A stretch of DNA of 64,000 nucleotides, taken from positions 1 through 64,000 of the forward strand of contig JAYTHY010000074.1 of the NCBI GenBank assembly GCA_043732185.1. The letters run 5' to 3'. Under the pieces are notes generated by a model. It had not been told where the DNA came from. It was given only the letters and a program-made list of their open reading frames with translations, and ran no database searches. The stretch is from Fibrobacteria bacterium. GTDB lineage: Bacteria; Fibrobacterota; Fibrobacteria; UBA11236. Made by a program: the position numbers and the translations under genes. Below are positions 9,204 to 26,008 of this stretch, piece by piece (position 1 is the stretch's first letter; every line of letters begins with the position of its first letter).

Positions 9204-9257
9204 AATTTCTCCTTTATAAAGTTCAAAAAAGAACTGAGGAAAAGAGAGCATTCGGAT

Positions 9258-9286: not shown

Positions 9287-9443
9287 ATCAATGTATGACA
9301 GCACCCCCTAGAATTAAATACAAGTCTATATTCTATAACGATTTACAGAAAATATCCTGGGTCATAAATAGCGCCTAAAATGGTGACTGACCCTTTCCCT
9401 CCTTTGGATGAGTCGGTCTTTTGACCAGAGTCTATTTCGAAAA

Positions 9444-10475: not shown

Positions 10476-10504
10476 AGAACCTCCGCATTTTTTGAGCTCG
10501 AGAC

Positions 10505-11128
10505 TCAGAACTTGAATGGCTGCTCGATTTTTTGAGCCACCGGTATGCCGCCATTCATGGCGGGTTTATAGCGCCATTCCCGAACCGCATCACGAATGGC
10601 ATCCTCATAACCGAAATTACCCGGGACTTCCAAGAATCGAATATCGCTGACTCGACCGTCTACACCAATGGTGAGAATACAGCGGACCAATCCGCCGGCC
10701 CCGGCAGCTTCTGCCTTCTTAGGTTTTTTCGGTACGGTCTGGGACAAAGCCTTGGCATCTTCGTCGGTTTCACCCTCCTCATAACTTACTTGCTGCAAAT
10801 CGCCTTGCGCGACTCCAGCACCGGCGCCATTTCCGGAACCGCCTCCCGGCCCCAAATCCATGACAAAGCGTTGTCTTGAGATGGATTTTCCGGGCTCAAC
10901 GGTTTTCTTTTCCAGCGACTTTTTAGATTCGAGCGGTTTTGGTTTTTCTTTCTTTTTCTGAACCATGGTCATGGCAATCAAGTGCAGGTCTCGGTTTTTA
11001 CCGGAACTTGTCAAGCCACGATGCGCATTCCAATAACCCATCAGGGGTAAGAAACTGAACAAGCCAGCATTCAAAGCGAGACTGCCGGTAATAGCCAAGA
11101 TGGAAATAGTCAAACCCTTCAAATTCAT
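10505..11128 (-). CDS. tonB: Energy transducer TonB
   Basis: N-terminal TM anchor, Lys/Pro-rich linker, C-terminal domain (IGVDGRVSDI..AVREWRYKPA..G.PV). Confidence 0.88.
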   Translation of the reverse strand: MNLKGLTISILAITGSLALNAGLFSFLPLMGYWNAHRGLTSSGKNRDLHLIAMTMVQKKKEKPKPLESKKSLEKKTVEPGKSISRQRFVMDLGPGGGSGNGAGAGVAQGDLQQVSYEEGETDEDAKALSQTVPKKPKKAEAAGAGGLVRCILTIGVDGRVSDIRFLEVPGNFGYEDAIRDAVREWRYKPAMNGGIPVAQKIEQPFKF

Positions 11129-11535
11129 TTAACATCCTGATTGGCTGCTACGGAAACTTTATGCACGCCGGCGGAATTGCATTCATCCATGATATCCACC
11201 ACGACACCCATATCCGCATCTCGATCGGAGACAATGACTACGGCGCGATCCGCATCTTCAGCCAATTCCCGTCTCAATATAGCCTGCAGCATGGCCAAGT
11301 CCACCTGACGTTCATCCAAATGGATGGTGCCTTCCTTGCTCACGCCGACCATGATATTTTCCTTTTCCAGCTGGGCGGCCGAACCGGCCGAGGGCTTGGT
11401 AATATCCAGACCCGTCTCTTTGGAAAAGGTGGTGGTCATGATAAAGAAAATGAGAAGGATAAAAATCACGTCCACCAGATTAACAATGGCGATTTCAACA
11501 TCCCGCTTGGATCGTTTTCGAATCGTGGGAATCAT
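11125..11535 (-). CDS. exbD: Biopolymer transport protein ExbD
   Basis: NLVDVIFILLIFFIMTTTF TM segment with conserved Asp; periplasmic domain. Confidence 0.93.
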   Translation of the reverse strand: MIPTIRKRSKRDVEIAIVNLVDVIFILLIFFIMTTTFSKETGLDITKPSAGSAAQLEKENIMVGVSKEGTIHLDERQVDLAMLQAILRRELAEDADRAVVIVSDRDADMGVVVDIMDECNSAGVHKVSVAANQDVK

Positions 11536-12209
11536 GCGCGTAGTCCAATGATATGCGTGGAATTGGAGCTGGCTCTTTCCCGCCGATGCTTTGTCGGCGC
11601 CGCCGGAGCCAAGTGGTTAATCAAGCCATGCGCTGCCGCTAATGTACCCTGTTCAATGGCTTCGGCCCGCGAGGACAGAAAAACGTGCATGAGCAGCAGC
11701 GGAAAGGCTACCAATAATCCGTTCTGAGTAGCCATTAAGGATTCTGCAATGCTGTCGGACATGAGGGCCTGGTTTCCGGTTCCAAATGCGCTGATAACTT
11801 GGAAGGTACGTACTATGCCGGATACCGTTCCCAATAATCCCATCAGGGGAGCTGCCGAAGCCAGGATCGCCAAGGTGGATAAGGATTTTTCCAATTCCGG
11901 AATTTTGAATTTCATCACCTCATCGAGCTTGGCTTCCATTTCCATACGCCCTGAATGGCGTGCCGAATAAATGGCTGTCAAGGCTGCTCCGGCCACGGAC
12001 CGTTTTGCCCGTGGGGACAAAGATTCCAAAGTCAGGATTCCCTCCTTGGACCCCAACTGGCTTCGCCATTTGCCTAGGCCCGTCCAGGTCAAGCTCCGGA
12101 GCCCCATATAGCGATGGAAGACAATGAACCAGCCCGTAATCGAAGTCAGCATCAGGGGGATTAAAACCCAGCCAGCTTTAATCATGCCCTCCAGAATAGG
12201 TTCAAACAT
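11532..12209 (-). CDS. exbB: MotA/TolQ/ExbB proton channel protein
   Basis: APLMGLLGTVSGIV..SIAESLMATQNGL. Confidence 0.9.
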   Translation of the reverse strand: MFEPILEGMIKAGWVLIPLMLTSITGWFIVFHRYMGLRSLTWTGLGKWRSQLGSKEGILTLESLSPRAKRSVAGAALTAIYSARHSGRMEMEAKLDEVMKFKIPELEKSLSTLAILASAAPLMGLLGTVSGIVRTFQVISAFGTGNQALMSDSIAESLMATQNGLLVAFPLLLMHVFLSSRAEAIEQGTLAAAHGLINHLAPAAPTKHRRERASSNSTHIIGLRA

Positions 12210-13779
12210 GCTCTTCCACCCGCTTGGAGGTGGTGAATAGGGTATTCACCAGTCGCGCAGCGTATTTCTCCATATTCGCGATAATATGGCCCGACCAGTT
12301 GTCCAGAATATTATAAGCGATGAGCAAAGGGATTGCGACGCCCAAACCCCACTTGGTGGCAATCAAGGCTTCGGAAATCCCTCCGGCCATGAGTTTTGGA
12401 TTACCCGTACCGTGCACGGTGATCACGTCGAATAAGCGTACCATTCCCGTTACGGTACCTAATAAACCCACCAGCGGCGATGCCGCGGCTAAAATATTCA
12501 TGGTGGTAATCCGTTTTTCCAAAGCCGGAGATTCATGCAGCATCACTTCATGGGCTTTACTTTCAGCATCCTCACGGGATCCTTCCGACCTCTCCAGAAT
12601 GGAAAGCAATACGCGACCGACGGATCCGGGACTTTTCTTGCACAAAACAATGGCCTCGGGAATTCGGTTGGCTGCGGCATAGGCTTGCACCTTGGCGGAC
12701 AGCTTTTCCGCGGCTTGGTCTTTGCGAATAAATACGAATACCTTTTCGATGATGATGATCAAACCAGACAACATCAAGGCCATAATCGGAAACATAACCC
12801 ATCCGCCACCATCGAATTCATGCTCTATGGTTTTCAAGAAAGTACCACGCGCCTTGGTCGTAAAGCCTTCTCCCGTTGCCTTGGTCAATAAAACATCCAT
12901 AGGCAACATCACCATGGAGTCCAGTTGCAAATCTTGGCTTGAAGCCAAGCCCAATACCGCCGTTCTCAAATCTTTCCGGACATTATCCGGAAGGTCTTCA
13001 ATCCATTCCCAAGCCTGGCCGTCCAGCCTCCCGGTCTTACCCAAAATGGCGACATCCTCACTCTCCGTGCTCACAAAAGCCTGATAGGCCTGCCCCATGC
13101 GAACCACATAACCAGCCGCTAACTTGGCCTGCGAGGCCATGTCCAAGGGAGCGCCATTCTTTTCTTGGGATGCTTTGGCGGCGGCAATGCCTTTGACGGC
13201 AAGTTTTTCACGGGCAATGGATTTTGATTCCCCATCGACGAAATCGCCATAGGCTAAAGTAAAAAGCCTATCTAAAGCGGCCGAGGAGGAGGCATCCTCT
13301 TTTTCCAAAGATTTTTTGGCATTGGATAATGCACCTAATTTTTCCACTGACCGATAGGGAAAACCATTTTCCCATTCCTTACCCAACTCTCCGAGTTTAT
13401 CACGCACTTGCAGGCCGAATTGCTTTAAGCGATTCTGCTGTTCTTCGACCTCGCGACGTTTTTCCGATTCCTGATTCTGAAGTCTGAGAAGAGTTTCTTC
13501 CTTCTGATCCTTCATCTGCCCAAGCCGGTCGATATCAGCTTTGATTTCATTCCAAGCATCACTGAAGGCTTCTTGAGCCGCCACGGCATTACGTTTATCT
13601 TGCCACCTTTTGACGCGAACATCTTCCAACTGACGCTGGTAGAGTTGCACTTCTTGGCGCGCTTTATCCAGATCCTCCTGAACCTTTTGTTCTTCGCGCC
13701 GACGACTGGCTCCTTCGGTAGGATAAGGGAATAAAGCCGCCCATGTACAAGCCAAGGTTAATAACCAAATCTTCTTCAT
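12202..13779 (-). CDS. Large ExbB-family protein with periplasmic coiled-coil domain (TtpC-like)
   Basis: Signal peptide, long coiled coil, C-terminal SPLVGLLGTVTGM..GGISEALIATKWGL. Confidence 0.85.
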   Translation of the reverse strand: MKKIWLLTLACTWAALFPYPTEGASRRREEQKVQEDLDKARQEVQLYQRQLEDVRVKRWQDKRNAVAAQEAFSDAWNEIKADIDRLGQMKDQKEETLLRLQNQESEKRREVEEQQNRLKQFGLQVRDKLGELGKEWENGFPYRSVEKLGALSNAKKSLEKEDASSSAALDRLFTLAYGDFVDGESKSIAREKLAVKGIAAAKASQEKNGAPLDMASQAKLAAGYVVRMGQAYQAFVSTESEDVAILGKTGRLDGQAWEWIEDLPDNVRKDLRTAVLGLASSQDLQLDSMVMLPMDVLLTKATGEGFTTKARGTFLKTIEHEFDGGGWVMFPIMALMLSGLIIIIEKVFVFIRKDQAAEKLSAKVQAYAAANRIPEAIVLCKKSPGSVGRVLLSILERSEGSREDAESKAHEVMLHESPALEKRITTMNILAAASPLVGLLGTVTGMVRLFDVITVHGTGNPKLMAGGISEALIATKWGLGVAIPLLIAYNILDNWSGHIIANMEKYAARLVNTLFTTSKRVEEHV

Positions 13780-14609
13780 TTCATCTTGCCTTTAAATGCA
13801 GTTTTCCAAATCGGCAAGGCTACGAATCCAGGCAAGGCTTTGCCTTCGGCCGTGGCGATGGCCTGTTTAAGGGCTTGACGGGTAGCATGGTCCATATCTT
13901 TTTCGCGTACCCAGGCATAACCCATGGCGGGAGCCTCAGCGGATTTGAGTATACCGAGTTTGGTTCCATCCAGAGAACTAAAGGCCAACAATTGCTTACC
14001 GACCCGTAAATATTTCACTTGCACCGGATCCCCGGCATCCTCAGAAAAATCGCCCGAGTACACTTCCGCTTCCTGCGCCAAACGCCGTTCGTTTTGCTCA
14101 ATGCTCCATAAACGATTCATGCCCTCTTCAGGCGAGATGTTTCCGCCGGCAATGTCTCGGACCAATAGATCCAGCGCTTCCAGCCTTTTGTCCATTCGAT
14201 AGGGCAAGCCCGGTGCCATAGCTTCACGCAATTGCTGAGCCTTAGCCGAGAGCGTTTGACTGAGCTGCGTGAAACGAGATTGTAATTCACGTTCCTTGAA
14301 CTGATGTCCTTCCATTTTTGCCAAGTTGGCCTTTAGCTTTTCCTCTTGCCCAGCCAAAGTTTCCTGAAGTCTGAGTCTGTCTTGGCTGAAATCGGAAAAG
14401 CGCTTACGACGCCGGGATTCCGCTTCTTTCTCGCGCGCCGTTTCTTCGCTCCAAAGTTTTTCTTCTTGAGCAATTTCTTGATTAGTGCGCTCCACCAGCA
14501 TATTGGCCTCTACAACCGTATTGGGTTGATTCGACATGGAAGCCGGAGTCGTTGTTGGCATGGGTTCTCCGGCCATAAATGCGATGGAAAACCAAAGTAG
14601 GGTAGTCAA
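13776..14609 (-). CDS. DUF3450-family coiled-coil protein (TtpB-like)
   Basis: Start moved to TTG 14609 after SD GGAGG; GLPYRMDKRL, VKYLRVGKQLLAF, FVALP motifs; first gene of TonB2-type cluster. Confidence 0.8.
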   Translation of the reverse strand: MTTLLWFSIAFMAGEPMPTTTPASMSNQPNTVVEANMLVERTNQEIAQEEKLWSEETAREKEAESRRRKRFSDFSQDRLRLQETLAGQEEKLKANLAKMEGHQFKERELQSRFTQLSQTLSAKAQQLREAMAPGLPYRMDKRLEALDLLVRDIAGGNISPEEGMNRLWSIEQNERRLAQEAEVYSGDFSEDAGDPVQVKYLRVGKQLLAFSSLDGTKLGILKSAEAPAMGYAWVREKDMDHATRQALKQAIATAEGKALPGFVALPIWKTAFKGKMK

Positions 14610-14756
14610 TTCATCCTCCCAGGAATTTAAGGAGGTAAACGTAGGGCAAAGATGTTTCAATCTCTTTTCTATTCCATTGCATAACCGCGGCAATCGGTTT
14701 AAGATCTAGGGTATTTTTAGGGTCATTTACCCGTCCGAAACGTAACCTCCATGAGT

Positions 14757-14798
14757 CGGTAACAATATCGTTACCAATGTATTTCAATTTTGTTGCAT
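14757..14798. promoter_or_regulatory. Four-unit Pho-box-like array in the divergent ttpB / glycosidase promoter region
   Basis: Minus strand ATGCAAC-N4-TTGAAAT-N4-TGGTAAC-N4-TTGTTAC (11-bp period); contains palindrome GGTAAC-N6-GTTACC (14758-14775). Confidence 0.65.
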
Positions 14799-14860
14799 AC
14801 CCTAAATTGCAATAGAAAAGCAGGGATCTTTGTTTATACTCTGTGAACAGAATAGGAATA

Positions 14861-17305
14861 ATGCTAGAGAAACTCATACAGACGTATTTGAAATGGACCG
14901 GAAAAGGGTATCTCGTTCCCTTCATCAACGGCCTCGCCAATCTGGGCCGGCCTTCCACTGTATTTTTTCCCATGGAATTGATGGAACAAGGCATGGCCAT
15001 CATTCTCTCCGGACTCAACAATACCATGGCTATCCAGAGCAACCTGGATTGGATCTGGCCGCTTTGGGTGGAACGCCAAATGGATCCCGCTGGAGAGGAA
15101 TTCATTCCCACGGCCATCAACCTCATTAAAACAAACCTAACCTGCCGGAACTGGACCTCAGTTGGATTAGGAAATAGCCCCCGGGAAGCCATGGTCGATC
15201 CCGTTGGCATGCTGACCTTGCGACCTTATGGTTGGTCGGTGTTTCCCTATGTAAGACTCGAAGGGCGTAGCTTTTTTCCGCCTAGACTCATGCCTCGTTG
15301 GCAAGCCTTGCAAAGCCTCTTGGACGGTTCACTCCCCTGTGTCATAACGCAATATGAAGTCCGCCCTAATTTAGGTTGGAAATCCGAAATCATGGCCGTG
15401 GAGGTCAATGGTGAGGACTGCATCAGTTTTAGCCATACCCTCGTCAACCGATCCAACTCGCATCTGTCCCTAAAATTCGGCTTAGCCATCAGGCCCTATA
15501 ACCCTTTAACCGTGGGCCATATTAATTCCATTCAATACCACGAGGGGCTTTGGCGCATCAATGGCCATGACGGCCTTTACCTTTATGACACGCCGGATCA
15601 TACCATACTCTCCGATCGTCACCATGGAGATCCGCTTGTTAAAGACGTACTAATCGGTGGAAGACGGCAACTTAAATCACGATCGGGGATAGCCTGCGGA
15701 CAAGCCGAATACCATCTTGAATTGGGACCCGGTCAAGCGCGTACATTTGAAGCCTTAGGGTTCATGGGCAATAAGCGTCTCAAGCCTTTGAAGAAGGGTC
15801 CAGAAAAAGCGTCACTGAAAAGTCTGATTGAAATCAAGAATAGCCGCGTCAACGCATTGATCCAGGATCAAGAATCCGGATTGAGAATTTGCATCCCGGA
15901 TGAGAAAATACTGGAAGCTTTTCAGGCGGTCAAAAGTCATATTCATGTTTTTGATGATAATACCCATTTTTCACCCGGGACTTTTCTGTACCATAATCAT
16001 TGGTTCCGGGACTCGGCCTTTATCGCCCTAGCTTTTGAAAATATGGGTTGGGGCGAACGCGTAGCGCCAAAAATTCTCAACTACCCAAAGCACCAAACCG
16101 ATGATGGGTTTTTCAAAAGCCAACACGGGGAGTGGGACAGCAATGGCGAGGCCATGTGGACCATAGTCAATCACATTAAGCGAGGCGGGAACCCGACGCT
16201 CTTGAAACGGCTCTACCCTGCCTTAATAAAAGGCGCACGCTGGATAGCTAAAATGCGTGATGAAACTCGAGTCTCACCCTCTCCCCATTTTGGGTTGATG
16301 CCCTCTGGGTTTTCCGCCGAACACTTTGGACCCAATGATCATTATTACTGGGATAACCTATGGAGTTTGGCTGGCTTGGAGGCAGCAAAATGGGCGGCCG
16401 AAAAACTGGGCCATGCTAACGATGTCCTCTGGCTCCAAGATTTGCTTTTGGATTATCGCGGCGACCTGGCTGCCTCCATGGATTGGGCCTGGAAAAAATC
16501 CGGAATAAAGGCTTTACCCTGTTCTCCCTACCGTTCCTTGGATTCAGCCGCCATTGGTAATCTTGTCGGGCTATCCCCCCTGAACGTCATCGACATCGAC
16601 GAGACTTGGATCCGTGGCACCTTGGATTTCTTGCTTGAAAACAATCTACGCGATGGACTTTTTTTCCAGCGCATAGTCCATACCGGATTGAACCCCTACC
16701 TTTCCGCACAATTGGCCAGGACCATGATGGCGCTGGGAGATCCACGTTGGATCGGTATTTTGGAAGCCTTGCTGCAACGCGCATCTCCAACCTATACTTG
16801 GCCGGAAGCCATTCATCCCCGCATGTATGGCGGCTGCATGGGAGACGGTGACCATGGCTGGTCCGCGGCTGAATTCTTGAATTTGATCCGTGACATGCTG
16901 GTTACCGAAAGAAGCGGATCGCTATTGTTAGCTGAAGCGGCACCTGCGAAATGGTTCAAGCCCGGATTACGCCTCGAAGTGTTCGCCGCGCCCACCATCC
17001 ATGGAACTGTGAATTACTGCTTAATGCAAGGGTCATTTTCCGCGACATTGTCTTGGCGCATAACCCGCTCAGCCTTTCAGGATCCGGTGCCCTTATATTT
17101 CCATCTCCCGGCAAGTTCCGGTTTAAATCCAGGAATTTCGTGCACGGAGGTGGCTGGAATTTTCAAAATACTGCTCCCCACGGATTCTGGTGAACTCACA
17201 TTATTCGCTTCACGAATCCGTGGAGGTGGTTCCGTGCAACCACCGGACCTATTGAATGCCGCGGAGCCTTCAGTTAATCAAAGCCAAAGGACAAGAAATG
17301 CATAA
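14861..17305 (+). CDS. Cytoplasmic six-hairpin (alpha/alpha)6 glycosidase-like protein, substrate unknown
   Basis: HWFRDSAF, GEWDSNGEA, YYWDNLWSLAGL, TWPEAIHP motifs typical of GH15/GH63-like barrels; no signal peptide; ATG 14861 after AGGA (GTG 14843 is an alternative). Confidence 0.7.
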   Translation: MLEKLIQTYLKWTGKGYLVPFINGLANLGRPSTVFFPMELMEQGMAIILSGLNNTMAIQSNLDWIWPLWVERQMDPAGEEFIPTAINLIKTNLTCRNWTSVGLGNSPREAMVDPVGMLTLRPYGWSVFPYVRLEGRSFFPPRLMPRWQALQSLLDGSLPCVITQYEVRPNLGWKSEIMAVEVNGEDCISFSHTLVNRSNSHLSLKFGLAIRPYNPLTVGHINSIQYHEGLWRINGHDGLYLYDTPDHTILSDRHHGDPLVKDVLIGGRRQLKSRSGIACGQAEYHLELGPGQARTFEALGFMGNKRLKPLKKGPEKASLKSLIEIKNSRVNALIQDQESGLRICIPDEKILEAFQAVKSHIHVFDDNTHFSPGTFLYHNHWFRDSAFIALAFENMGWGERVAPKILNYPKHQTDDGFFKSQHGEWDSNGEAMWTIVNHIKRGGNPTLLKRLYPALIKGARWIAKMRDETRVSPSPHFGLMPSGFSAEHFGPNDHYYWDNLWSLAGLEAAKWAAEKLGHANDVLWLQDLLLDYRGDLAASMDWAWKKSGIKALPCSPYRSLDSAAIGNLVGLSPLNVIDIDETWIRGTLDFLLENNLRDGLFFQRIVHTGLNPYLSAQLARTMMALGDPRWIGILEALLQRASPTYTWPEAIHPRMYGGCMGDGDHGWSAAEFLNLIRDMLVTERSGSLLLAEAAPAKWFKPGLRLEVFAAPTIHGTVNYCLMQGSFSATLSWRITRSAFQDPVPLYFHLPASSGLNPGISCTEVAGIFKILLPTDSGELTLFASRIRGGGSVQPPDLLNAAEPSVNQSQRTRNA

Positions 17306-20090
17306 TCCTCAATACTTCCGCTCCGAAATCCGCCAAGACCTAGAGGCTTTTGTGAGGCGGCAGGAAGCGGTATTGGGTGGAGTGGACGGTGAAGACGTCA
17401 TGAAAATTGATTTGCATTGTCATGATCGCAATAGCGACGTACCGGATGAAACCCTAGGTCGACTCCTACGTATTCCGGAAACCTGGCTACCTACCGCAAA
17501 GTTGGTCCGCACCCTTAAAGCCAATGGGGCCGATGCCTTAACCATTACCAACCACAACAATGCCCGTAGCTGCTGGCAAGCCCAAGACCGGGGCGAGGAT
17601 ATCCTATCTGGCGCTGAATTCAGCTGCACAATGCCGGATATCGAGGTGGGCGTGCATGTGCTCACTTTCGGCTTTACGCCGAATCAAGAATCTAAACTCA
17701 ATCACTTGCGCAAGGATTTGTACCGATTTTTGGAATTCACGGCCGCCGAAGATATTCCCACGGTCCTGGCTCATCCTTTACATTTTTACAGCCCCAAAGG
17801 TGTGCCTTCCTTGGAATTGATGGATCGATTTGCTGTGCTCTTCGAACGGTTCGAAGGGGTAAACGGCCAGCGGGATTCCTGGCAGAATTTACTCACGATA
17901 ACCTGGTTGGAAGGTTTAGACCAGGAAGCGATTGAAACCGCGGCCAAACGAGTGGGAATCAAACCGGATGCCTATTGCCGTCGGCCTTTCAACAAACGGA
18001 TCACGGGCGGTTCAGATTGCCATATGGGCATTTTCCCCGGTTCCACGGGTACGCTGCTTAGAGTGCCTGGCTGGCGCACCAAAGACGAAAGTCGTTCCCA
18101 ACTTGCCTTGGCAGCGCTACGAGACGGCGACATCGCGCCTTACGGCAGCCATTGTGAAGAGGAAAAACTAACTGTTGCTTTCCTGGATTTCTTCTGCCAA
18201 GTGGCCTTACATATGGAAGACCCAGGATTGCTTCGACTACTCCTCCATAAGGGAACGACCACCGAAAAACTCCAAGCCTTGGCGATTTCCAATGCCATGC
18301 TGGAATTACGCCGCCACCGTTATACTTCGAAATTCCTCGGTCTATTCCACGAATGCCTGCAAGGGAGAAAACCCGGCTGGTTTACTTCCTTAATGACGAG
18401 CCAAGACTATAAACCATTACTGGGTCAAATGAATGCTATTGCTACTGCAAGGGCTCAATCACCAGAAAGACTGGTTCAAGTGCTCGGTGTTGCTTTGCCG
18501 GCCATGTTCGATCAATTAACCCGTCTATTGACGGACCGCATAAAGGCCAAGGTTCGAAAAATGGAAGACAAGGGCGTGAATATTGCCTCTTCGGAATTAA
18601 TCGGAAAAATAGAACTGCCCACCCACTTCCGCTCGCTATTTGGAGTCGATGGAGGTTCTCAAAGCAAGGACATCGGCGGCATTGATATTGGCAAGCTCAG
18701 CGATGGTCTTCCCTTTCCAGCTTTAGCCGCCGGCGTGCTCGGAGGCGCGGCCTTCGCCGCTTCCAAGGTGCTATATGGACATCGATCTTTTCTGCAGGGG
18801 CTCTCGGAACGGCTTGGCCGTTATCAACATCCCAAACGCATATTGTGGATCACCGATACGCTCGAAGATAGGAATGGCGTCTCACATGTATTACAGAACA
18901 TGCTCGGGGAAGTTAGGCGTAAAAACCTGCCCATTGACTTTCTGGCCTGCGCAACCGGCAAAGAAAACGGTTTAACCAGCGGCAGCCACCTCCAGATTAT
19001 CCCAGCGGTCTCGGAATTCACCTTGCCTTTTTACCAGGATCAAATCATCCGCATGCCGGGAATGCTGGAATTACAAAAAACCTTCCTGGAAGGCGGCTAT
19101 GACCGGATTATCTGTTCAACGGAAGCACCCATGGGGTTGTTTGCCTTATACTTGAAACATGCCTTCAACGTGCCGGCTTATTTTTATGCCCATACCGATT
19201 GGCTGGACTTCGCCCGTCGCACGCTAAAATATGATCAGCATAAATTAGATCGGCTTCGTCGCTTTTTACGGGCTTTCTACCGAAGGTTCGATGGAGTTTT
19301 TCTCCTCAATACCGAGCAAAAGGAAAATTTCGCCTCTGCAGCCATGGGCCTGGTCCCCGAACGACTTCACCTGACCGCCCACTGGGCAGATGCGCGATTC
19401 CACCCCCGGAACGTCAGCCGCAAGGATATTTATCCAACGGCTGAAGGACCGGTAGTCCTGTATTCAGGACGCCTTAGTGAAGAAAAAGGCGTGTTGGAAA
19501 TCCCCGATATCATTCGTTGCATCCAGGCCAATATACCCAGCGTCAAAATTGCCTTTGCCGGAACCGGCCCTTGCTTAGACAGCTTGAAAACACTTTGTCC
19601 AGATGCGATTTTTCTCGGTTGGTTGGATGCCGATAAACTTGCGGAAGCATACTCCGCAGCCGATTTACTCTTGCTGCCGTCCTGGTTCGATACCTTCTCC
19701 TGTTCACTCCTGGAAGCCCTCGGCTGTGGTCTCCCCGCCGTGGCTTTCAACACAAAGGGTCCCAGAGATATTCTGGCGGAGGAAAAAGGCGGCATACTGG
19801 TAGAGAGTGCCTCGGAAATGGCCTCAGTTGCCACGCATCTCCTGGAATCACGGGAAAACCTACTCCTCATGAAGTCACAGGCTTTGTCGCGAGCAGCGGA
19901 CTACCATGCCGAAACCATTATGCATGGAATGATGCAGGACACGGATTTGTCCGATGGGAAGCCTGCTCGGCGCAAAGTTTCAACTCGCTCGAGAACAAAA
20001 CGTAAGCCCTCCGCCTTGGATATTTCCCAAGAGGAAAACCACGCTTTTCTCGGGGAACTTTTTTCTCTAATGGGTGTAGAGCAAGGATAG
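17298..20090 (+). CDS. Fusion of PHP-family metallo-phosphoesterase domain and GT4 glycosyltransferase
   Basis: PHP motifs DLHCH, ITNHN, GAEF..VHVL, LAHP, GSDCH; GT4 motifs ITDT..NGVS, TEAPMG, HTD, GRLSEEKG, DTFSCSLLEA; ATG 17298 overlaps upstream gene by 8 nt. Confidence 0.85.
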   Translation: MHNPQYFRSEIRQDLEAFVRRQEAVLGGVDGEDVMKIDLHCHDRNSDVPDETLGRLLRIPETWLPTAKLVRTLKANGADALTITNHNNARSCWQAQDRGEDILSGAEFSCTMPDIEVGVHVLTFGFTPNQESKLNHLRKDLYRFLEFTAAEDIPTVLAHPLHFYSPKGVPSLELMDRFAVLFERFEGVNGQRDSWQNLLTITWLEGLDQEAIETAAKRVGIKPDAYCRRPFNKRITGGSDCHMGIFPGSTGTLLRVPGWRTKDESRSQLALAALRDGDIAPYGSHCEEEKLTVAFLDFFCQVALHMEDPGLLRLLLHKGTTTEKLQALAISNAMLELRRHRYTSKFLGLFHECLQGRKPGWFTSLMTSQDYKPLLGQMNAIATARAQSPERLVQVLGVALPAMFDQLTRLLTDRIKAKVRKMEDKGVNIASSELIGKIELPTHFRSLFGVDGGSQSKDIGGIDIGKLSDGLPFPALAAGVLGGAAFAASKVLYGHRSFLQGLSERLGRYQHPKRILWITDTLEDRNGVSHVLQNMLGEVRRKNLPIDFLACATGKENGLTSGSHLQIIPAVSEFTLPFYQDQIIRMPGMLELQKTFLEGGYDRIICSTEAPMGLFALYLKHAFNVPAYFYAHTDWLDFARRTLKYDQHKLDRLRRFLRAFYRRFDGVFLLNTEQKENFASAAMGLVPERLHLTAHWADARFHPRNVSRKDIYPTAEGPVVLYSGRLSEEKGVLEIPDIIRCIQANIPSVKIAFAGTGPCLDSLKTLCPDAIFLGWLDADKLAEAYSAADLLLLPSWFDTFSCSLLEALGCGLPAVAFNTKGPRDILAEEKGGILVESASEMASVATHLLESRENLLLMKSQALSRAADYHAETIMHGMMQDTDLSDGKPARRKVSTRSRTKRKPSALDISQEENHAFLGELFSLMGVEQG

Positions 20091-20108
20091 CCAGGGAATA
20101 CAATAATT

Positions 20109-20879
20109 CTAAATGGGCAAGCGGTTTATTTTTTCTAGCCCAGTAGAGACGGCTTGATGTAAGCTCTGAGCAAGTTCCTTTCTATCAAAACTTCGCACCG
20201 GTTCGCTGGAAAATTGAATGACGGCACTCATACCGGCCATACTGAAGAGTTGAATAAAATGGGGAAGCATGGTCATATCTCCCCACCAGCACATCGACTC
20301 AGAGGCCTTTATACAGCCCTGCGGAGCGATGTAGCGAATGGAAGCGCAATGAACCGGCATCCCTCGGTCGGCGGGATAGCACAATAAGGAGGAGCGAAAC
20401 GGAGCCACCTTCCGCCCATCTGTGCTCGTGCCTTCGGGGAAAAGCGCCAAGCTCCCGCTGGAAGAAAAATGCTTCTGAATCCGATCATTAACCCTTTTGT
20501 TATCTCGCATGGATTCTCGGTCAATGAAGAGTGTGCCTGAAAGTGTAGCCAAGGTTCCAAACAACGGCCATGAAGCCACTTCGGATTTTGCCACAAACGT
20601 GCACGGCAATTGGGACGCTATCAAAGGGATATCAAGATAGCCTAGATGATTGGTCACCAGAAAAAAAGGGTTTGTCGGCTTAGTGCCCTCCAGTGTGACT
20701 TTCAATCCTAGTAACCTTAGCGTTACCTTACTCCAAAGCATGCTATATCCAGCAGCAATTCTGGCCCTATTCGCCTTTGCGACCAATAGCCTCCGAAGGA
20801 TCCAAATAGAAATGACGAATCCTGACCAGACTAAGAAAAGCGCCAGACGGGCCCCGGTCGAGATTTTATTTCGTATCAA
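20109..20879 (-). CDS. Lyso-lipid O-acyltransferase (PlsC family), OlsA-like
   Basis: NHLGYLD (HX4D), FVAKSEV, FPEGT, CWWGDM; 4-nt overlap with olsB-like gene. Confidence 0.85.
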   Translation of the reverse strand: MIRNKISTGARLALFLVWSGFVISIWILRRLLVAKANRARIAAGYSMLWSKVTLRLLGLKVTLEGTKPTNPFFLVTNHLGYLDIPLIASQLPCTFVAKSEVASWPLFGTLATLSGTLFIDRESMRDNKRVNDRIQKHFSSSGSLALFPEGTSTDGRKVAPFRSSLLCYPADRGMPVHCASIRYIAPQGCIKASESMCWWGDMTMLPHFIQLFSMAGMSAVIQFSSEPVRSFDRKELAQSLHQAVSTGLEKINRLPI

Positions 20880-21766
20880 CCCAGCATTTTCCTAAACACA
20901 CCCTCCGGCATAGCATGGGTATCCAAAGCGACCAGGAAATCAATGGTTTTAAAGTGACGATCCAATGCGGGTTCGCCGCATACCAAGGCGCCCAAATTCA
21001 AATATCCTTCGAACAGTCTAGGTATCCGCGGGGTACCCGCACTCAAGATTTCGATAGGTTCCGCTACACAAGCGTAATCTGGTTTTGGCCATGCATAAAG
21101 GGTGGGATGAATCTGGTCCGCTTTCATTAGTTTTTCGTAAAGTGCAAGACCTTCAGACGGATCCTGGCTGGTCAGGGAACAACAGCCGAAAAGATGTCTT
21201 TTGCCATTCCAATCCATATACCGCGCTAAACCTCTCCAAAGCAATTGCAAAACCCTTCCATTCCGGTGTTCACGACCAATGCAAGCGCGACCTACTTCAA
21301 CGCAAACGTCCAAAAACGAATTCGGAAATTCTTCAAGGTAGAACTCTTGTTGGGAATAAAAACCCCGGTGCAATAAAGCCATGGCACCAGTTTGGATACG
21401 GTATGTTCCCACAACCGATCCACTGGAGCGGTGTATGACCATAAGGTGATGGCATTGCGAGTCGAACTCGTCTATGTCGCGACTGGTATCGAATGAAGAA
21501 TCCAAACCTTCTCCCAACTCCAGGTTATAAACTTCAAAGCGAAGCCTACAAACCGCGTCCAGGTCTTCACCACTCTTCGCGAAACGAAGGATATACTCCC
21601 CGGATTCCAGCGTGGTTGGTGGTATACCGCCGTGGTTCGAAGGATATTCACGGATAGGTAAAAGGGTTTCTTCTGGTTTTCTAACGAATCTGGATTGATT
21701 TGAGCGGTTAAAAACCGAATTTTCATAAACGGATTTTCCGATGACATTTGCGTTTATATTCTGCAT
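20876..21766 (-). CDS. GNAT amino-acid N-acyltransferase, OlsB-like (ornithine/aminolipid synthesis)
   Basis: RLRFEVYNLELG, DIDEFDSQCHHL, VVGTYR, EVGRACI, FGCCSL, GYLNLGA.VCGEPALD..FKTIDF. Confidence 0.85.
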   Translation of the reverse strand: MQNINANVIGKSVYENSVFNRSNQSRFVRKPEETLLPIREYPSNHGGIPPTTLESGEYILRFAKSGEDLDAVCRLRFEVYNLELGEGLDSSFDTSRDIDEFDSQCHHLMVIHRSSGSVVGTYRIQTGAMALLHRGFYSQQEFYLEEFPNSFLDVCVEVGRACIGREHRNGRVLQLLWRGLARYMDWNGKRHLFGCCSLTSQDPSEGLALYEKLMKADQIHPTLYAWPKPDYACVAEPIEILSAGTPRIPRLFEGYLNLGALVCGEPALDRHFKTIDFLVALDTHAMPEGVFRKMLG

Positions 21767-21825
21767 GCCAAACCTCTTTCTGGATACATGGCGTTCTGCC
21801 GGCAATCAATTTGTCGACATCAATA

Positions 21826-21859
21826 ATCTTAAGCCACGATTATTTCGAACCTATTTCAG
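21826..21859 (-). promoter_or_regulatory. Pho box plus -10 for olsBA-like operon
   Basis: Minus strand CTGAAAT-N4-TCGAAAT (21859-21842), 10 nt, TAAGAT (21831-21826); first unit overlaps the stop codon of the upstream gene. Confidence 0.7.
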
Positions 21860-23070
21860 TCCTTAATCAATTCTCTTCCATTAACATGATAATATCCGGA
21901 AGGAAGCCGAATTGTCATTTCTCCATTTTTCAAATCAATGCTTTTCCCTAATCGAATTGAGGGCTTGTCGCCGGAGCTTGCAGAATTTTTTTTAATTCCT
22001 ACTGCTCCAGCCCCGGCAACCTCAACTGAGTCGCGCAAAGTAGTGGGGGCCGTGGCAGCATCCAAAAAATATTTAGCATTTCCGTTATCTATATCATGTC
22101 CCTTACTCAATACATCAACTTTTCCGTTCGTATAAATATTTATTAAGGTGTATCCATGGTAGGCTGGTTTGGGACTAAGATTTGCGACCCAAGTGGATTC
22201 AACCTGACTACCGCCATTTCCGGCAATGATTTGCCAAGTTTTATTTGCATGAGGCTGAATTTTATCCCAGACATGCACGTGAGCAGCAAACATTGCCTCA
22301 CTCTGGTTGCTTTCTAAAACGCTCCAAAAGGCATCGCGATTTACGGGATATTTTGCCAGTCCGTCATTAAGTGTAGCTGTATTAATGCCAGGATAGGCTG
22401 GTTTATGTCCGATAAGAAAAATATGGCGGGCCCCATTTAACCTCGCTGTCGCTAAATCTGAGCCTACCCATAAAGTTGGAACACGCCAATCACGACCTAC
22501 GGGATCGGTATTCAACATTACAAAATGATCCCCTTTAAAATTGAATGAATAAGTCAGTTGACTTTGGTCGGTTTTCAAGGAATCTCCGTGAGTGGAATCA
22601 GCGGTCGGTCCATTGTTTCCAAGAATGTATGGCGCCATGATTTTTAGCCACGCGCTTTCATTATCCAAGAAAGAAAGCTTCCCAGCTTTTTTGTCTTGTG
22701 TTTCATGATTACCAGGAATTACGACTAGCTTGGTAGATTTACTAGCGAGGGGAGAGGCCTGATATAATTTAACCCACTCTCTTAATTGACGAGACACCTC
22801 TACTGTATCCTTAACATATCCTAAAATTAGATCACCTGCGATAAACAAATAGGAAGGTACTGGGTTTATATTAGAAACCTCTGAAAAGAGACGGTTTAAC
22901 GCTGGTACATTTGCTGTGCTTGGATTATTGACTGTATCTACATCATTTACGCGATTGCACCCAACAACCACAAAGGAATAGTCCAAGGTTTGACAAAATA
23001 TTTGAGTGGATAATATTCCCAATGCGATGGATAAAATTAAAAATAAGGTAAATGACGCGTGCTTCTTCAT
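21856..23070 (-). CDS. Secreted calcineurin-like metallophosphoesterase
   Basis: Signal peptide; AGDL, PGNHE, GHKP, AHVH motifs; short basic C-terminal tail; SD AAGGAG. Confidence 0.85.
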   Translation of the reverse strand: MKKHASFTLFLILSIALGILSTQIFCQTLDYSFVVVGCNRVNDVDTVNNPSTANVPALNRLFSEVSNINPVPSYLFIAGDLILGYVKDTVEVSRQLREWVKLYQASPLASKSTKLVVIPGNHETQDKKAGKLSFLDNESAWLKIMAPYILGNNGPTADSTHGDSLKTDQSQLTYSFNFKGDHFVMLNTDPVGRDWRVPTLWVGSDLATARLNGARHIFLIGHKPAYPGINTATLNDGLAKYPVNRDAFWSVLESNQSEAMFAAHVHVWDKIQPHANKTWQIIAGNGGSQVESTWVANLSPKPAYHGYTLINIYTNGKVDVLSKGHDIDNGNAKYFLDAATAPTTLRDSVEVAGAGAVGIKKNSASSGDKPSIRLGKSIDLKNGEMTIRLPSGYYHVNGRELIKD

Positions 23071-23240
23071 ACAAATCTCCTTTTATTTATGTTCATTCTC
23101 TGAGCGAGTAAAATCACCATTCAAAAATTCATTTCGATTTCAGTTGCATTACTGAATAAAATCAATCTTTAAACATTTAAACTATTGCGCACCTTTTTCA
23201 ATTACTCGAATAGGTTCAGCGCTTTCAGGCGCATAAATTC

Positions 23241-23285
23241 TGGTAATCGATATGAAACTTATTTGAAACAAGGCAACAGTAGATT
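23241..23285 (+). promoter_or_regulatory. Pho-box triple repeat plus -10 upstream of the phytase-like pseudogene
   Basis: TGGTAAT-N4-ATGAAAC-N4-TTGAAAC (23241-23269), 10 nt, TAGATT (23280-23285). Confidence 0.72.
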
Positions 23286-23352
23286 TTCTATCACGAAGCA
23301 TGCCTCCTCGTGTTTAAAATATCACTGTAAAATAAACCAGGAAAAAACGATC

Positions 23353-23756
23353 ATGATCAAATCAATAAAACTGCTGGGACTAATAACCATGGCCCATCTT
23401 GCGACCACCAGTTTCTGGTTTTAGAACGGGATGGCAAGGGCATGGGAGATGGATCCAGTGCCGTGACGAAACAAATCTGGGGTGTGGATTTAACCGGAGC
23501 ACTTAAAGCCTTTGGAATTCCCGACACCCAAATCCCCGCTAAATTGGAAGGCATGACCTTTGGAGCCGACGTCATTACTGCCGGAGTCGTTTACCATACC
23601 TTGTAAATCGCCAATGACAATGACCTTATTGCCCAGGACATTCAACCCGTACCCGAGCCCGGCACCTTGGGTTCAATGATATTCGGTCTATTTACTCTGG
23701 GTTTAGTTTTTAGACGCAAACTCACCTTAATCCAACCCAATCTGAAATCATCTTGA
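23353..23756 (+). pseudogene. Remnant of phytase-like esterase with PEP-CTERM sorting signal
   Basis: Signal-peptide stub MIKSIKLLGLITMAHL (23353), frameshift, then from 23403 DHQFLVLERDGKGMGDGSSAVTKQIWGVDLTGA..IPAKLEGMTFGAD..HTL*IANDND..VPEPGTLGSMIFGLFTLGLVFRRK; in-frame TAA at 23604. Confidence 0.8.
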
Positions 23757-23775
23757 AACATGGGGCGATTAATTT
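23742..23775 (+). promoter_or_regulatory. Pho box plus -10 for first ppk1
   Basis: CTGAAAT-N4-TTGAAAC (23742-23759), 10 nt, TAATTT (23770-23775). Confidence 0.72.
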
Positions 23776-23790
23776 TTCATTAAATTCGAG

Positions 23791-23830
23791 TTTGGCTTAG
23801 GTTGTCTCAGATTGCCCTAGGTTGCTTTAG
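23791..23830 (+). repeat. Four imperfect tandem decamers in the ppk1 leader
   Basis: TTTGGCTTAG / GTTGTCTCAG / ATTGCCCTAG / GTTGCTTTAG. Confidence 0.6.
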
Positions 23831-23860
23831 TTAGCCAAGATCGAATGGCGGAGATGGAAA

Positions 23861-26008
23861 ATGACGTCAGAAACGGAAGCGACTTGGCCTTTTCACGTTC
23901 ACTATATTGATCGTGATTTTTCTTGGCTAGCCTTCAATAGGCGGGTGCTTTCTGAAGCCCGCAACCACGAAAATCCGCTCCTGGAAAGATTGAAGTTTCT
24001 TTCCATAGTCGCCAATAACCTGGATGAATTTTTTGAAGTCCGCATTGCTGGATTATTACAAAAAGTGGAATCGGATGTTTCCACTGATGGTATTGCGCAT
24101 TTGGATTGTCGAGCCAAACTGAAAGGCTTGCTTCGAATAGTCCATGCGACCGTCGCCAACCAGTACCGTTGCTGGAATGATGAGATGATTCCCGATCTCA
24201 AGCGAAATGGAATCCATATCCTGTCTCCCGGCGACCTTAGCGACGAGCAAACCCAAGAACTGCGCAGTCGTTTCTTATCTGAAATTTATCCACTATTGAC
24301 CCCCATCAAGGTGGATCCGGCTCATCCCTTTCCTTGGGTTTTGAACAAGGCTCTCTGCCTAGGCGTTTGGCTAGAAGAATCGGATGGGCGAGGCCGAGGC
24401 AGTCTAGGCGTTTTAACCATCCCGCGTTGCTTACCTCGGGTATTGGCCCTCTCTGAAAAAGCCGGGAGCCATCAATTCATTTTCCTCTATGACCTCATCA
24501 AAATGTTCATGCAGGAATTGTTTCGTGGCTATCGGATTCATAGTATTGCCTGTTTCCGCGTGACTCGTAACAGCAATCTTTACGGTGCGGAGGATTTGGG
24601 AAACTTACTTGATACGGTAGAAGCCGTGGTGCATAATCGTCGTAAGGGTAATGTGGTCCGTTTGGAAATCGATGAGGACACACCTACCCGAATCCGCACA
24701 GCCTTGATGGAAAATTTCGGTTTGGATTCGGATCTGGTTTTCAGCGCGCCTGGACCCGTCAACCTGAATCGCCTCATGAGCCTTTATCAATTGCTTCCCA
24801 TTCCCGAGCTTAAGTTTCCCTTGCATATTCCCCGAGGTTTGCATCGAGGCGTCGAACCCCCGGATCTATTTGCCCGCATTCGGGACCGGGATATTCTGCT
24901 TCATCATCCTTTTGATGCCTTTGATCCCGTCACGGATTTTATCCGAAGCGCGGCTCGGGATCCTGATGTGCTCTGCATCAAACAAACCCTTTATCGGACC
25001 AGTGCGGAATCGCCGATCATGTTTGCATTGCTGGAAGCCGCGGAGCTAGGCAAAGAAGTGACCGCGGTTGTGGAACTTCAGGCCCGCTTTGATGAAAAAT
25101 CCAATATCCAATGGGCCCGCCAGCTTCAGGACAAAGGCGGCACCGTGGTCTATGGTTTGGTGGGACTGAAAACCCATTGCAAATTATCCTTGGTTTTACG
25201 GCGTGAACAGGGAAGCATGCGCGAATATGCCCATGTGGGAACAGGAAACTATCATCCGGAAACGGCCAAGCATTATACTGATTTGAGTTTGTTTACCGCC
25301 AATGCCGAATTGACCCATTCCATTTCCAATGTTTTTAATTTCCTCACCTCCCATTCCAAAACTCCTGATTTTCCAAATCTTTTGGTGGGCCCGGTGAATT
25401 TTTTGAAAGAGACACTTAGACTTATTCGAGTTGAAGTTGAGAATGCCAAAGCCGGAAAACCAGCCGGAATTACAGCCAAGATGAATGCACTAATCGATTC
25501 CGAAATCATCGACGCCTTGTACCAAGCCTCGGAAGCAGGTGTGCGAATTCGACTGGTTGTGCGAGGGATTTGCGCCCTGAAACCACGCATTCCAGACATG
25601 AGCGAGAATATCGAAGTAAAAAGTGTGATCGGGCGGTTTTTGGAACATAGCCGGATCTTCCGTTTTGAAAATGGGGGCAGCCCCAGGATTTATATTGGAA
25701 GCGGGGATTGGATGACACGAAACCTTCGGGAGAGAGTTGAGGTCTTGGTGCCGGTCTTTGATCCCGGCCACCGTACTCGACTGGAAAATATACTGAGTTT
25801 GTATTGGGCAGATAATACTCGGTCCCATCACTTACTTTCGAACGGAAACTATGCGAAAGTCAAAGTCAAAAGCGAAGAACTCCCCATTGATGCCCAGGCT
25901 TTGCTGCTGGTCAATGCGGATTTCCGACTAGATCCCGCCTTCGATCTTTTTCTAAACAGCCAAGTCAAAATCCCGGAATTGATGTTGGCTAACCCCGAAC
26001 TTCATTAG
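23861..26008 (+). CDS. ppk1: Polyphosphate kinase 1 (copy A)
   Basis: RDFSWLAFNRRVL, NLDEFFEVR, DPAHPFP, ARFDE, LKTHCK (phospho-His), RFLEHSR. Confidence 0.97.
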   Translation: MTSETEATWPFHVHYIDRDFSWLAFNRRVLSEARNHENPLLERLKFLSIVANNLDEFFEVRIAGLLQKVESDVSTDGIAHLDCRAKLKGLLRIVHATVANQYRCWNDEMIPDLKRNGIHILSPGDLSDEQTQELRSRFLSEIYPLLTPIKVDPAHPFPWVLNKALCLGVWLEESDGRGRGSLGVLTIPRCLPRVLALSEKAGSHQFIFLYDLIKMFMQELFRGYRIHSIACFRVTRNSNLYGAEDLGNLLDTVEAVVHNRRKGNVVRLEIDEDTPTRIRTALMENFGLDSDLVFSAPGPVNLNRLMSLYQLLPIPELKFPLHIPRGLHRGVEPPDLFARIRDRDILLHHPFDAFDPVTDFIRSAARDPDVLCIKQTLYRTSAESPIMFALLEAAELGKEVTAVVELQARFDEKSNIQWARQLQDKGGTVVYGLVGLKTHCKLSLVLRREQGSMREYAHVGTGNYHPETAKHYTDLSLFTANAELTHSISNVFNFLTSHSKTPDFPNLLVGPVNFLKETLRLIRVEVENAKAGKPAGITAKMNALIDSEIIDALYQASEAGVRIRLVVRGICALKPRIPDMSENIEVKSVIGRFLEHSRIFRFENGGSPRIYIGSGDWMTRNLRERVEVLVPVFDPGHRTRLENILSLYWADNTRSHHLLSNGNYAKVKVKSEELPIDAQALLLVNADFRLDPAFDLFLNSQVKIPELMLANPELH

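Follow-up and report, generated by a model that had tools for sequence, protein, structure and literature searches.

The window analysed here is a 64,000-nucleotide stretch of DNA from a Fibrobacteria bacterium (GTDB lineage Fibrobacterota; Fibrobacteria; UBA11236), comprising positions 1 to 64,000 of contig JAYTHY010000074.1 (GenBank assembly GCA_043732185.1). Two adjacent plus-strand genes, gene 1 (14861–17305, ATG to TAA, 814 amino acids (aa)) and gene 2 (17298–20090, ATG to stop, 930 aa), lie in what the first-pass annotation of this DNA termed a Pho island, with phoU-pstBACS, porin, olsA/olsB-like, and ppk1/ppx genes found around the pair. Gene 2 joins a predicted PHP phosphoesterase domain to a helical linker and a glycosyltransferase family 4 (GT4) domain of the Agt type, and is probably (with a likelihood of roughly 0.7) a single-polypeptide converter of phospholipid to glycolipid under phosphate scarcity, functionally a fused counterpart of the PlcP and Agt pair. 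Gene 2 starts 8 nt ahead of the end of gene 1, its ATG preceded by AGGA, consistent with the translational coupling already supposed for the two genes. A database protein 99% identical to gene 2 (P0003) also has 930 aa, with homologues beginning at the same Met, and one 97% identical to gene 1 (P0123) likewise has 814 aa; a possible alternative GTG start of gene 1 lies upstream of the ATG, at 14843. Neither protein shows a hydrophobic signal-like N-terminus on inspection or by Kyte-Doolittle scan (no dedicated signal-peptide predictor was run), in line with the earlier statement that signal peptides are absent. A −10-like box, TATACT (14835–14840, plus strand), which may act as a promoter element, is found 20 nt before the gene 1 start, and the TTATACT block containing it is kept at this position in four loci (the window, L002, L004, and L006).

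The N-terminal domain of gene 2 (17385–18152, approximately residues 30–285) is identified as a divergent PHP member by its predicted fold and its motifs. The metal-ligand motifs quoted in the first-pass annotation (DLHCH, TNH, E..H, AHP, and SDCH) occur as D38-L-H40-C-H42, T84-N-H86, E107, H120, H159-P160, and S239-D240-x-H242, with D38, H40, H42, H86, E107, H120, H159, D240, and H242 invariant in 41 of 41 aligned family members, and the PHP ligand residues likewise invariant in a 16-member alignment of the family; the metal site assigned to each residue is taken from motif order. Structure prediction and Foldseek, both proposed as checks, agree with this, with the AlphaFold 2 (AF2) model of residues 1–510 reaching a pLDDT of 88.6 and Foldseek ranks 1–14 consisting of PHP proteins throughout. 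The highest VIA structural match is PsfC (7rty; Z 16.8, root mean square deviation (rmsd) 3.3, 220 residues aligned), followed by BVU_3505 (Z 15.8), BAD_1165 (Z 15.2), TM0559 (Z 14.2), and RNase AM (Z 13.4), with the matches covering residues 27–302. The distorted (β/α)7 barrel and the full His/Asp/Glu metal-ligand set are common to gene 2 and the PHP enzymes of known structure (PsfC 7rty, TM0559 2anu, BVU_3505 3e38, RNase AM 7ug9/9etk, and Cv1693 2yb1), and from the modelled fold and invariant ligands the domain looks active. It shares 15–22% sequence identity with these structures, none of which is fused to a glycosyltransferase, unlike gene 2, and the helical domain appended to the PHP barrel is without a structural match. 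The NCBIfam nucleoside bisphosphate phosphatase model gives 17.3 bits on gene 2, against a cut-off of 400.

This helical domain is a conserved, all-helical linker (18153–18827, approximately residues 286–510) containing a disordered stretch (438–461) and an Ala/Gly-rich helix (470–493), with structural searches returning generic helical matches alone (Z ~6). The hydrophobicity of the helix is moderate, with a borderline Kyte-Doolittle value of 1.53 at residues 470–488 that is no higher than those of buried GT4 helices; among 40 relatives, the top Kyte-Doolittle window falls in the linker segment in 17, in a buried GT4 helix in 22, and elsewhere in the GT4 domain in one (L052).

The GT4 domain (18828–19937, GT-B fold), marked by G527, H632, R725/K730, and D798-T-F-S...E806, contains all of the motifs listed in the first-pass annotation (TDT..NGV, TE.PMG, HTD, and DTF....LEA). 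It is the only part of gene 2 recognised by Pfam, at residues 526–680 and 715–850, with scores above cut-off for Glyco_transf_4 (42.6 bits), Glycos_transf_1 (71.9 bits), and Glyco_trans_1_4 (79.2 bits). The closest shorter proteins are standalone relatives of 380–440 aa with 45–50% identity, and next after the members of the family itself come the Bradyrhizobium proteins P0362–P0364, with P0362 named by JGI as a ‘1,2-diacylglycerol 3-alpha-glucosyltransferase/glucuronosyltransferase’, which is the activity of Agt. The affinity to Agt is measured against these JGI-named proteins rather than the Agt and GTcp sequences themselves, with a BLASTP alignment to P0362 of 104 bits (E 2e-29, 33% identity over 263 columns), and the best other matches reach no more than 52 bits for an NCBIfam family and 39 bits for a GT4 chain in the PDB. 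The family signature D-T-F-[GS]-x4-E reads D798-T-F-S-C-S-L-L-E806 in gene 2, and the columns D798...E806, H632, R725, and K730 are invariant or nearly so in the family alignment. In the GTcp study (PMC8231724), residues Asp256, Thr257, Phe258, Gly259, Glu264, His104, and Arg190/Lys195 are reported to be essential by mutagenesis, with Asp in place of the usual GT4 Glu given as a trait of the GTcp/Agt group; H632 and R725/K730 of gene 2 correspond to GTcp His104 and Arg190/Lys195. By sequence, Agt-type enzymes are the named family closest to the GT4 of gene 2. The wider subgroup proposed at first comprised Agt, SqdX, and MgtA, of which the comparison covered Agt alone.

Relatives of gene 2 were surveyed in contigs from one genome per species, yielding at least 610, with partner and neighbour counts made by tblastn on the best 60 loci. 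These 60 belong to Fibrobacterota, Leptospirales, other Spirochaetia, Bacteroidales, Holophagae/Acidobacteriota, and ‘Deltaproteobacteria’ metagenome-assembled genomes, and the PHP-GT4 fusion as such is found repeatedly, in Fibrobacterota, Spirochaetota, Bacteroidota, Acidobacteriota, and Desulfobacterota. In the phylum of G001, 24 further genomes of 301 encode a more distantly related, second subfamily of PHP-GT4 proteins, of 794–879 aa by longest reading frames, with the signatures D[LIM]H.H, GSDDH, and PS.TDT[FY]G present in 23 of the 24 frames; the Desulfobacterota loci L073–L096 and L097–L126 belong to this subfamily. One of its proteins, from genome G151, clusters with NCBI records named Desulfovibrio, and 138 of 301 sampled genomes of the G151 family encode a PHP-GT4 protein of this subfamily. 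The alignment of gene 2 to the G151 protein runs from the first PHP motif through the whole GT4 domain, with 195 bits (E 1e-55, 25% identity, 871 columns) and with the PHP motifs in register. Separately, Actinomycetota clusters of 574–648 aa match Pfam PHP, PHP_C, and Glyco_transf_4, and are maybe a third, shorter PHP-GT4 form.

The second subfamily connects the fusion to a published lipid phenotype. Bosak and colleagues (PMC5193443) describe a transposon mutant of Dde_3613 in D. alaskensis G20 as devoid of all glycolipids (MGDG and GADG) at limiting inorganic phosphate (Pi) and as growing poorly; the gene is termed an ‘Agt homolog’, the supplement annotation gives it a PHP plus glycosyltransferase architecture, and the main text, as far as accessible, contains no mention of PHP, PlcP, or a phospholipase. 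Dde_3613 (Oleidesulfovibrio alaskensis G20) therefore has, by annotation, the same architecture as gene 2 and is required for MGDG/GADG under Pi limitation, with its Desulfovibrio-type homologues aligning to gene 2 over the full length. Its subfamily is nonetheless separate, at ~25% identity, with the pattern DLHVH...GSDDH...PSTTDT[FY]G and lengths of about 800–880 aa. The module is thereby less new than the first-pass annotation had it, since one family member has a published lipid phenotype.

Comparison of fused and standalone forms of the GT4 bears on the role of the PHP domain. In the Bacteroidales family of genome G004, this GT4 occurs in 50 of 90 genomes, mostly as a standalone protein (385–440 aa), with seven fused (897–945 aa); a class-level search of the Bacteroidia for the standalone GT4 returned the query genome alone (1/401). 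A 284-aa cytoplasmic LpxH-like metallophosphoesterase (52.6 bits to the LpxH model, cut-off 134) is divergently adjacent to the standalone GT4 in 22 of 24 loci, one of the other two being at a contig end. No such LpxH/PlcP-like enzyme lies beside the fused forms of the same family (0/7 loci), no close homologue was found genome-wide in five fused-form genomes (best E 7.7e-5, 21% identity), and none was found in the 59 fused loci among the best 60, the sole match, L041, being a standalone form. The PHP-linker module, in turn, is absent from the standalone genome G004 and from all five other standalone genomes searched, with a query that detected the module in four of five other genomes. The locus is otherwise kept in both forms, with a glycoside hydrolase family 13 (GH13) enzyme, a second GT4, and, at some of the loci, either a CHAD protein or pstS plus a porin. 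The Bacteroidales set itself (L041 1523–8183; L145–L164 and L172–L174) consists of the second GT4, the metallophosphoesterase, the gene 2-type GT4, the GH13 enzyme, a 152-aa protein, and the CHAD protein, and some of these loci adjoin pstS and a porin.

In a GT4 tree, used solely for the nesting of the standalone clade, the standalone forms make up one clade (99/98) nested among fused forms, and the exchange of PHP for a PlcP-like enzyme would thus be one displacement event kept in many species. LpxH was the outgroup chosen for PlcP in PMC9239053. Because fused forms are without a PlcP-like enzyme and standalone forms have it, the PHP module most likely stands in for PlcP. The genome of the window encodes a true LpxH (137 bits, cut-off 134), and no second LpxH/PlcP-like paralogue was found in it with this query. 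No PlcP (LpxH-related) is encoded with the glycosyltransferase in the window, so the system resembles PlcP-Agt in its working without being a strict member. With the PlcP-Agt pairs of Sinorhizobium/Agrobacterium, SAR11 (GTcp), Phaeobacter, Pseudomonas, and Methylosinus it shares the combination of a phosphoesterase with an Agt-type GT4, a phosphate-starvation context, the DTFG...E, catalytic His, and R/K motifs of the GT4 (33% identity to Agt-type proteins), and, in the Bacteroidales relatives, an adjacent LpxH/PlcP-like metallophosphoesterase. It differs in that the phosphoesterase of gene 2 is a PHP barrel, unrelated in fold to PlcP, and is fused to the GT4 via the linker of ~220 residues, whereas PlcP is a separate gene; in its near-constant third member, a glycosidase (GH15-like or GH13); and in its hosts, which for PlcP-Agt are Alpha- and Gammaproteobacteria in place of the phyla listed above.

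Gene 1 is, from its model, a cytoplasmic six-hairpin glycosidase-like protein with a glycoside hydrolase family 15 (GH15)-like fold, belonging to a family without a Pfam entry. The (α/α)6 enzyme claimed in the first-pass annotation is borne out by the AF2 model (pLDDT 86.5, pTM 0.90), in which an N-terminal helical extension and a β-sandwich precede the barrel, and a C-terminal β-sandwich follows it. The top VIA-align matches are GH15 enzymes, with Z 32.5 for dextran dextrinase (9ju0), Z 30.7 for glucodextranase (1ulv), and Z 30.6 for bacterial glucoamylase (1lf6), at rmsd values of 3.2–4.2 over 541–555 aligned residues; GH116, GDE, GH65, and GH94 trail by a few Z units, and Foldseek returns GH94 phosphorylases on top. 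Gene 1 shares with these GH15 enzymes the N-terminal β-sandwich and the barrel, the helical extension and the C-terminal β-sandwich being extra. By sequence it has no match in Pfam (including the GH15 family PF00723), NCBIfam, or the PDB. A profile search collected 3794 clusters at 50% identity, 988 of them at E ≤ 1e-30, and since 27 distant members give sub-threshold matches to six-hairpin families alone (Bac_rhamnosid6H in 5/27, GDE_C in 2/27, and GH15 in 2/27, the last at 17 bits against a cut-off of 22), gene 1 would represent a large, unnamed six-hairpin family. The acidic residues E424, D426, E487, D493, D498, D561, E649, D662, and D664 are invariant in the family, as is the motif W381-x-R383-D384, which we take to resemble GH15 region 1.

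The fusion is directly preceded by gene 1 in 28 of the 60 loci (24 of 48 with enough flank) and directly followed by a GH13 enzyme in 21 (20 of 51 with enough flank). In the 40 loci with both flanks readable, gene 1 is upstream in 19 and GH13 downstream in 15, giving 34 with either partner, none with both, and six with neither, two of which are second copies in genomes already holding the gene 1/gene 2 pair. The GH13 partner has an Alpha-amylase domain, with TreC/oligo-1,6-glucosidase as its nearest model (455 bits, cut-off 799). That the GH15-like and GH13 partners exclude each other suggests that the gene 2 subfamily has an alpha-glucoside step of its own, and the substrate of gene 1 is most likely an alpha-glucoside connected with this pathway. 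Head-group removal on return of Pi, trimming, or transglucosylation are all possibilities for the partner step, with turnover or trimming of an alpha-glucosyl head group our favoured guess for gene 1. A mycobacterial GH15 trehalase requires Pi for activity, and Pi-gated reversal would fit with such a precedent. In L030 (8798–9844; an uncultured-bacterium metagenome-assembled genome) and L033 (8871–9836; titled Leptospira biflexa), a 321–348-aa protein with faint alpha/beta-hydrolase matches stands directly upstream of the fusion, in the position taken by gene 1 in Fibrobacteria.

The genes flanking the pair are largely of the Pho type. The minus-strand flank (2–14693) comprises a TonB-dependent receptor, phoU, pstBACS, a porin O/P-like gene, and TPR, TonB, ExbD, ExbB, long ExbB, and DUF3450 genes, the core of the Pho island being phoU, pstB, pstA, pstC, pstS, and the porin O/P-like gene at 3265–9251. 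Just past gene 2, on the minus strand and hence convergent with it as originally described, lie an olsA-like lyso-ornithine-lipid O-acyltransferase (20109–20879; 136 bits, equivalog cut-off 300) and an olsB-like ornithine N-acyltransferase (20876–21805; 113 bits to the OlsB model, below the equivalog cut-off), followed by a calcineurin-like phosphoesterase (21856–23070, minus strand). The last was considered as a cytoplasmic PlcP equivalent and rejected because its N-terminal signal peptide means export. A plus-strand polyphosphate block (23861–29646) completes the island, in which a short SixA-like His-phosphatase gene and ppx sit between two full-length ppk1 genes.

Direct repeats of TGAAAY-N5-TGAAAY (at most one mismatch, 11-bp period) occur at 11 sites in the window, compared with 2.39 ± 1.49 expected from 100 shuffles of the window, none of which reaches 11, and 10 of the 11 sites are directly upstream of Pho-type genes. 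Before the TonB-dependent receptor, the porin, olsB, the exported phosphoesterase, and ppk1, the sites share the orientation of the gene that follows, with the motif scan placing repeats at 3207–3263, 9258–9285, 21842–21858, and 23126–23142 on the minus strand and at 23253–23269 and 23743–23759 on the plus strand; the dimer at 21842–21858 is the one directly upstream of the olsB-like gene, and loci L002 and L004 carry the same repeats before porin genes. The repeats are thus a candidate Pho box of this Fibrobacteria lineage. Conservation of the neighbourhood with pho, ppk, and ols genes had been proposed as a check, and such co-occurrence is seen in several phyla, with at least three of pstS/C/A/B/phoU within 10 kb in 10 of the 60 loci (from Fibrobacterota, Leptospirales, other Spirochaetia, Acidobacteriota, and Bacteroidota, five lineages), olsB and/or olsA nearby in nine, and ppk/ppx in six. 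The gene 1–gene 2 operon may be regulated by Pi; the 12 sequencing runs listed for 14600–20200 are DNA metagenomes throughout, with no RNA run among them.

Several further features of the island are recorded here as observations. The TonB-dependent receptor (CarboxypepD_reg plus Plug) and the TPR/TonB/ExbD/ExbB/long-ExbB/DUF3450 set within 2–14693 stand behind Pho-box-like repeats, and their presence in the Pho island suggests energised uptake of a phosphorus compound. The intergenic region between the exported phosphoesterase and ppk1 (23071–23860) is unusually long at 790 nt, and contains two Pho-box-like dimers and possibly a small unannotated reading frame. After the polyphosphate genes, 29823–34727 encodes a 1634-aa protein with three CHB_HEX_C_1 plus Fn3_assoc repeats and an Ig-like domain.

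In the mechanism proposed for gene 2, the PHP domain would act as a trinuclear-metal phosphoesterase yielding diacylglycerol from a membrane glycerophospholipid, with phospholipase C-type removal of the phosphate-bearing head group as the first choice and dephosphorylation of phosphatidate as the alternative. The helical linker would keep both catalytic modules together, possibly at the membrane surface, and the Agt-type retaining GT4 would move glucose and/or glucuronic acid from a UDP-sugar onto the diacylglycerol to give an alpha-glycosyl-diacylglycerol, with PHP filling the place of PlcP in the proteobacterial PlcP-Agt pathway. In this scheme, the lipid that PHP cleaves, the donor of the sugar, the glycolipid formed, and what gene 1 does are all inferred. 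The first-pass annotation had suggested that dephosphorylation for the GT4 is carried out by a PHP domain of the same polypeptide, and this idea gains support from four independent lines, namely the kinship to Agt, Dde_3613, the mutual exclusion of PHP and PlcP-like enzymes, and the linkage to pst and ols genes, which recurs across phyla.

A number of observations weigh against this scheme. Gene 2 has no Pfam PHP match at E ≤ 0.01, and NCBIfam PHP-type models fall below cut-off (CehA/McbA, 20.9 bits against 80). No PHP enzyme is known to act on a lipid, and no description of a PHP-glycosyltransferase fusion or a PHP lipid enzyme was found in the openly accessible literature. Deep forks of the GT4 tree among the gene 2 subfamily, the Desulfobacterota subfamily, and Agt-like proteins are weak, with long outgroup branches. 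The link to Dde_3613 rests on the annotation string in the supplement together with how widely the fusion occurs in its family; the Desulfovibrio-type subfamily is 25% identical to gene 2, and none of 18 Desulfovibrio-type loci has gene 1, GH13, or pst beside the fusion. The counts of standalone and fused loci are not independent, since they reflect one evolutionary event, and adjacency to pst/phoU is limited to the 10 of 60 loci given above. A hydrolase co-translated with a synthase is also awkward for a model of pure synthesis. Finally, the divergent Pho-box array reported in the first-pass annotation exists, as four degenerate hexamers (TGCAAC, TGAAAT, GGTAAC, and TGTTAC, 11-bp period; 14748–14797, minus strand), but it is oriented toward the divergent DUF3450/ExbBD/TonB operon and not toward gene 1, and therefore does not show Pho control of genes 1 and 2; the gene 1/DUF3450 intergenic region contains no plus-orientation copy before gene 1.

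Some of these points, together with others, would suit a soluble alpha-glucoside cycle, in which the GT4 glycosylates a phosphorylated small acceptor, PHP removes the phosphate, and the GH15-like or GH13 enzyme hydrolyses the glucoside, serving as a compatible solute, a carbon store, or a means of freeing Pi from sugar phosphates in starvation. Sucrose-phosphate synthase (SPS) and MshA are GT4s of this kind, the usual substrates of GH13 and GH15-like enzymes are soluble alpha-glucosides, and a synthase-phosphatase fusion with a cognate hydrolase is the common layout for such pathways. The resemblance of the GH13 partner to TreC/oligo-1,6-glucosidase and of the gene 1 fold to GH15 glucoamylase and glucodextranase, the presence of SPS (6kih, 37.9 bits) among the best PDB sequence matches of the GT4, and the lack of a clear membrane anchor in gene 2 by Kyte-Doolittle all agree with such a cycle. 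However, the GT4 scores 25.4 bits with sucr_P_syn_N (cut-off 576) and 33.1 bits with MshA (cut-off 462.5), compared with the 104 bits to the Agt-type protein, and carries the DTFG signature; a Desulfovibrio-type homologue is tied to glycolipid loss; the LpxH-like enzyme that replaces PHP belongs to a lipid-working family; the second GT4 of the Bacteroidales loci (405 aa) has as its best NCBIfam match alpha-monoglucosyl-diacylglycerol synthase (95 bits, below cut-off); and the olsBA lipid genes adjoin gene 2. The soluble glycoside, offered as the alternative in the first-pass annotation, is thus weakened by the kinship to Agt, the Dde_3613 phenotype, and the LpxH-like exchange, and we regard it as improbable.

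A similarly low probability is given to the reading in which the GT4 does make glycosyl-diacylglycerol and PHP is not the source of the diacylglycerol, instead dephosphorylating a released head group (phosphoethanolamine or glycerol-3-phosphate) for its Pi, acting on another phosphoester, or serving as a regulatory or scaffold module. Known PHP enzymes use soluble phosphomono- and diesters such as histidinol phosphate, nucleoside bisphosphates, RNA ends, and phosphotyrosine, and the candidate membrane-binding helix of the linker has a borderline Kyte-Doolittle value. One relative, L072 (G001:C1:4419629-4422010), is without the first D-x-H-x-H motif, which also counts against the converter; it begins at approximately residue 93 of gene 2, and may be a degenerate PHP module or have a misread start. 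Against this separation of the two activities stands the genome-wide mutual exclusion of the PHP module and the PlcP-like enzyme with synteny otherwise kept, and the invariance of the metal ligands in all 41 aligned members argues against a mere scaffold; moreover, another source of diacylglycerol would be needed, because the genome of the window has no PlcP-like paralogue by the query used. A switch of envelope glycans, with the GT4 acting on a polyprenyl-phosphate-linked or wall-polymer acceptor and PHP as a (pyro)phosphatase or CpsB-like tyrosine phosphatase, has a precedent in the phosphate-regulated teichuronic-acid switch, and weak NCBIfam matches to envelope GT4 families, TuaC (43.9 bits) among them, as well as the PHP tyrosine phosphatases YwqE/CpsB among distant fold matches (Z 6.2–6.9), could be read in its favour. 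It appears very unlikely, with TuaC far from its cut-off of 550, CpsB-type matches ranking well under those of the PsfC/TM0559 type, no polysaccharide export or polymerase genes in the locus, and all evidence for an Agt-type GT4 counting against it.

The substitution of glycolipids under phosphorus stress by a phosphoesterase and an Agt-type GT4 is already a known process. Within the openly accessible literature, what is new is the recognition of PHP-Agt fusions as a widespread form, the evidence for PHP in place of PlcP, and a conserved glycosidase partner from an undescribed family. The swap of phospholipids for glycolipids is a major phosphorus saving in bacteria and a marker of phosphorus limitation in oceans and sediments, with PlcP, described mainly in Proteobacteria, being to our knowledge the only known route to the diacylglycerol precursor. 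If PHP does the job of PlcP, this would explain membrane remodelling in lineages without PlcP, including the sulfate reducers, the MGDG of which serves as an environmental signal, and the published Dde_3613 mutant would be reinterpreted, its PHP domain having gone unremarked in the accessible text.

A further-reaching version of the fused phospholipid-to-glycolipid converter, which we hold only tentatively and think less likely than the converter itself, is that the PHP barrel represents an unrecognised class of membrane-lipid phosphoesterase that, with an Agt transferase, provides the main remodelling route in Fibrobacterota, Spirochaetota (including Leptospira), Bacteroidales, Acidobacteriota, and sulfate reducers without PlcP, and that its obligate partner, from a new six-hairpin family or from GH13, is a glycolipid alpha-glucosidase or a nucleotide-free transglucosylase. 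The partner enzyme would then make remodelling reversible or lengthen the head group at no phosphorus cost. For the large, unannotated GH15-like family of gene 1, the conserved pairing hints at glycolipid or alpha-glucoside chemistry. Should gene 2 act as proposed, a lipid substrate would be added to those of the PHP superfamily, and a single gene would become available for tracing or engineering phosphorus-free membranes.

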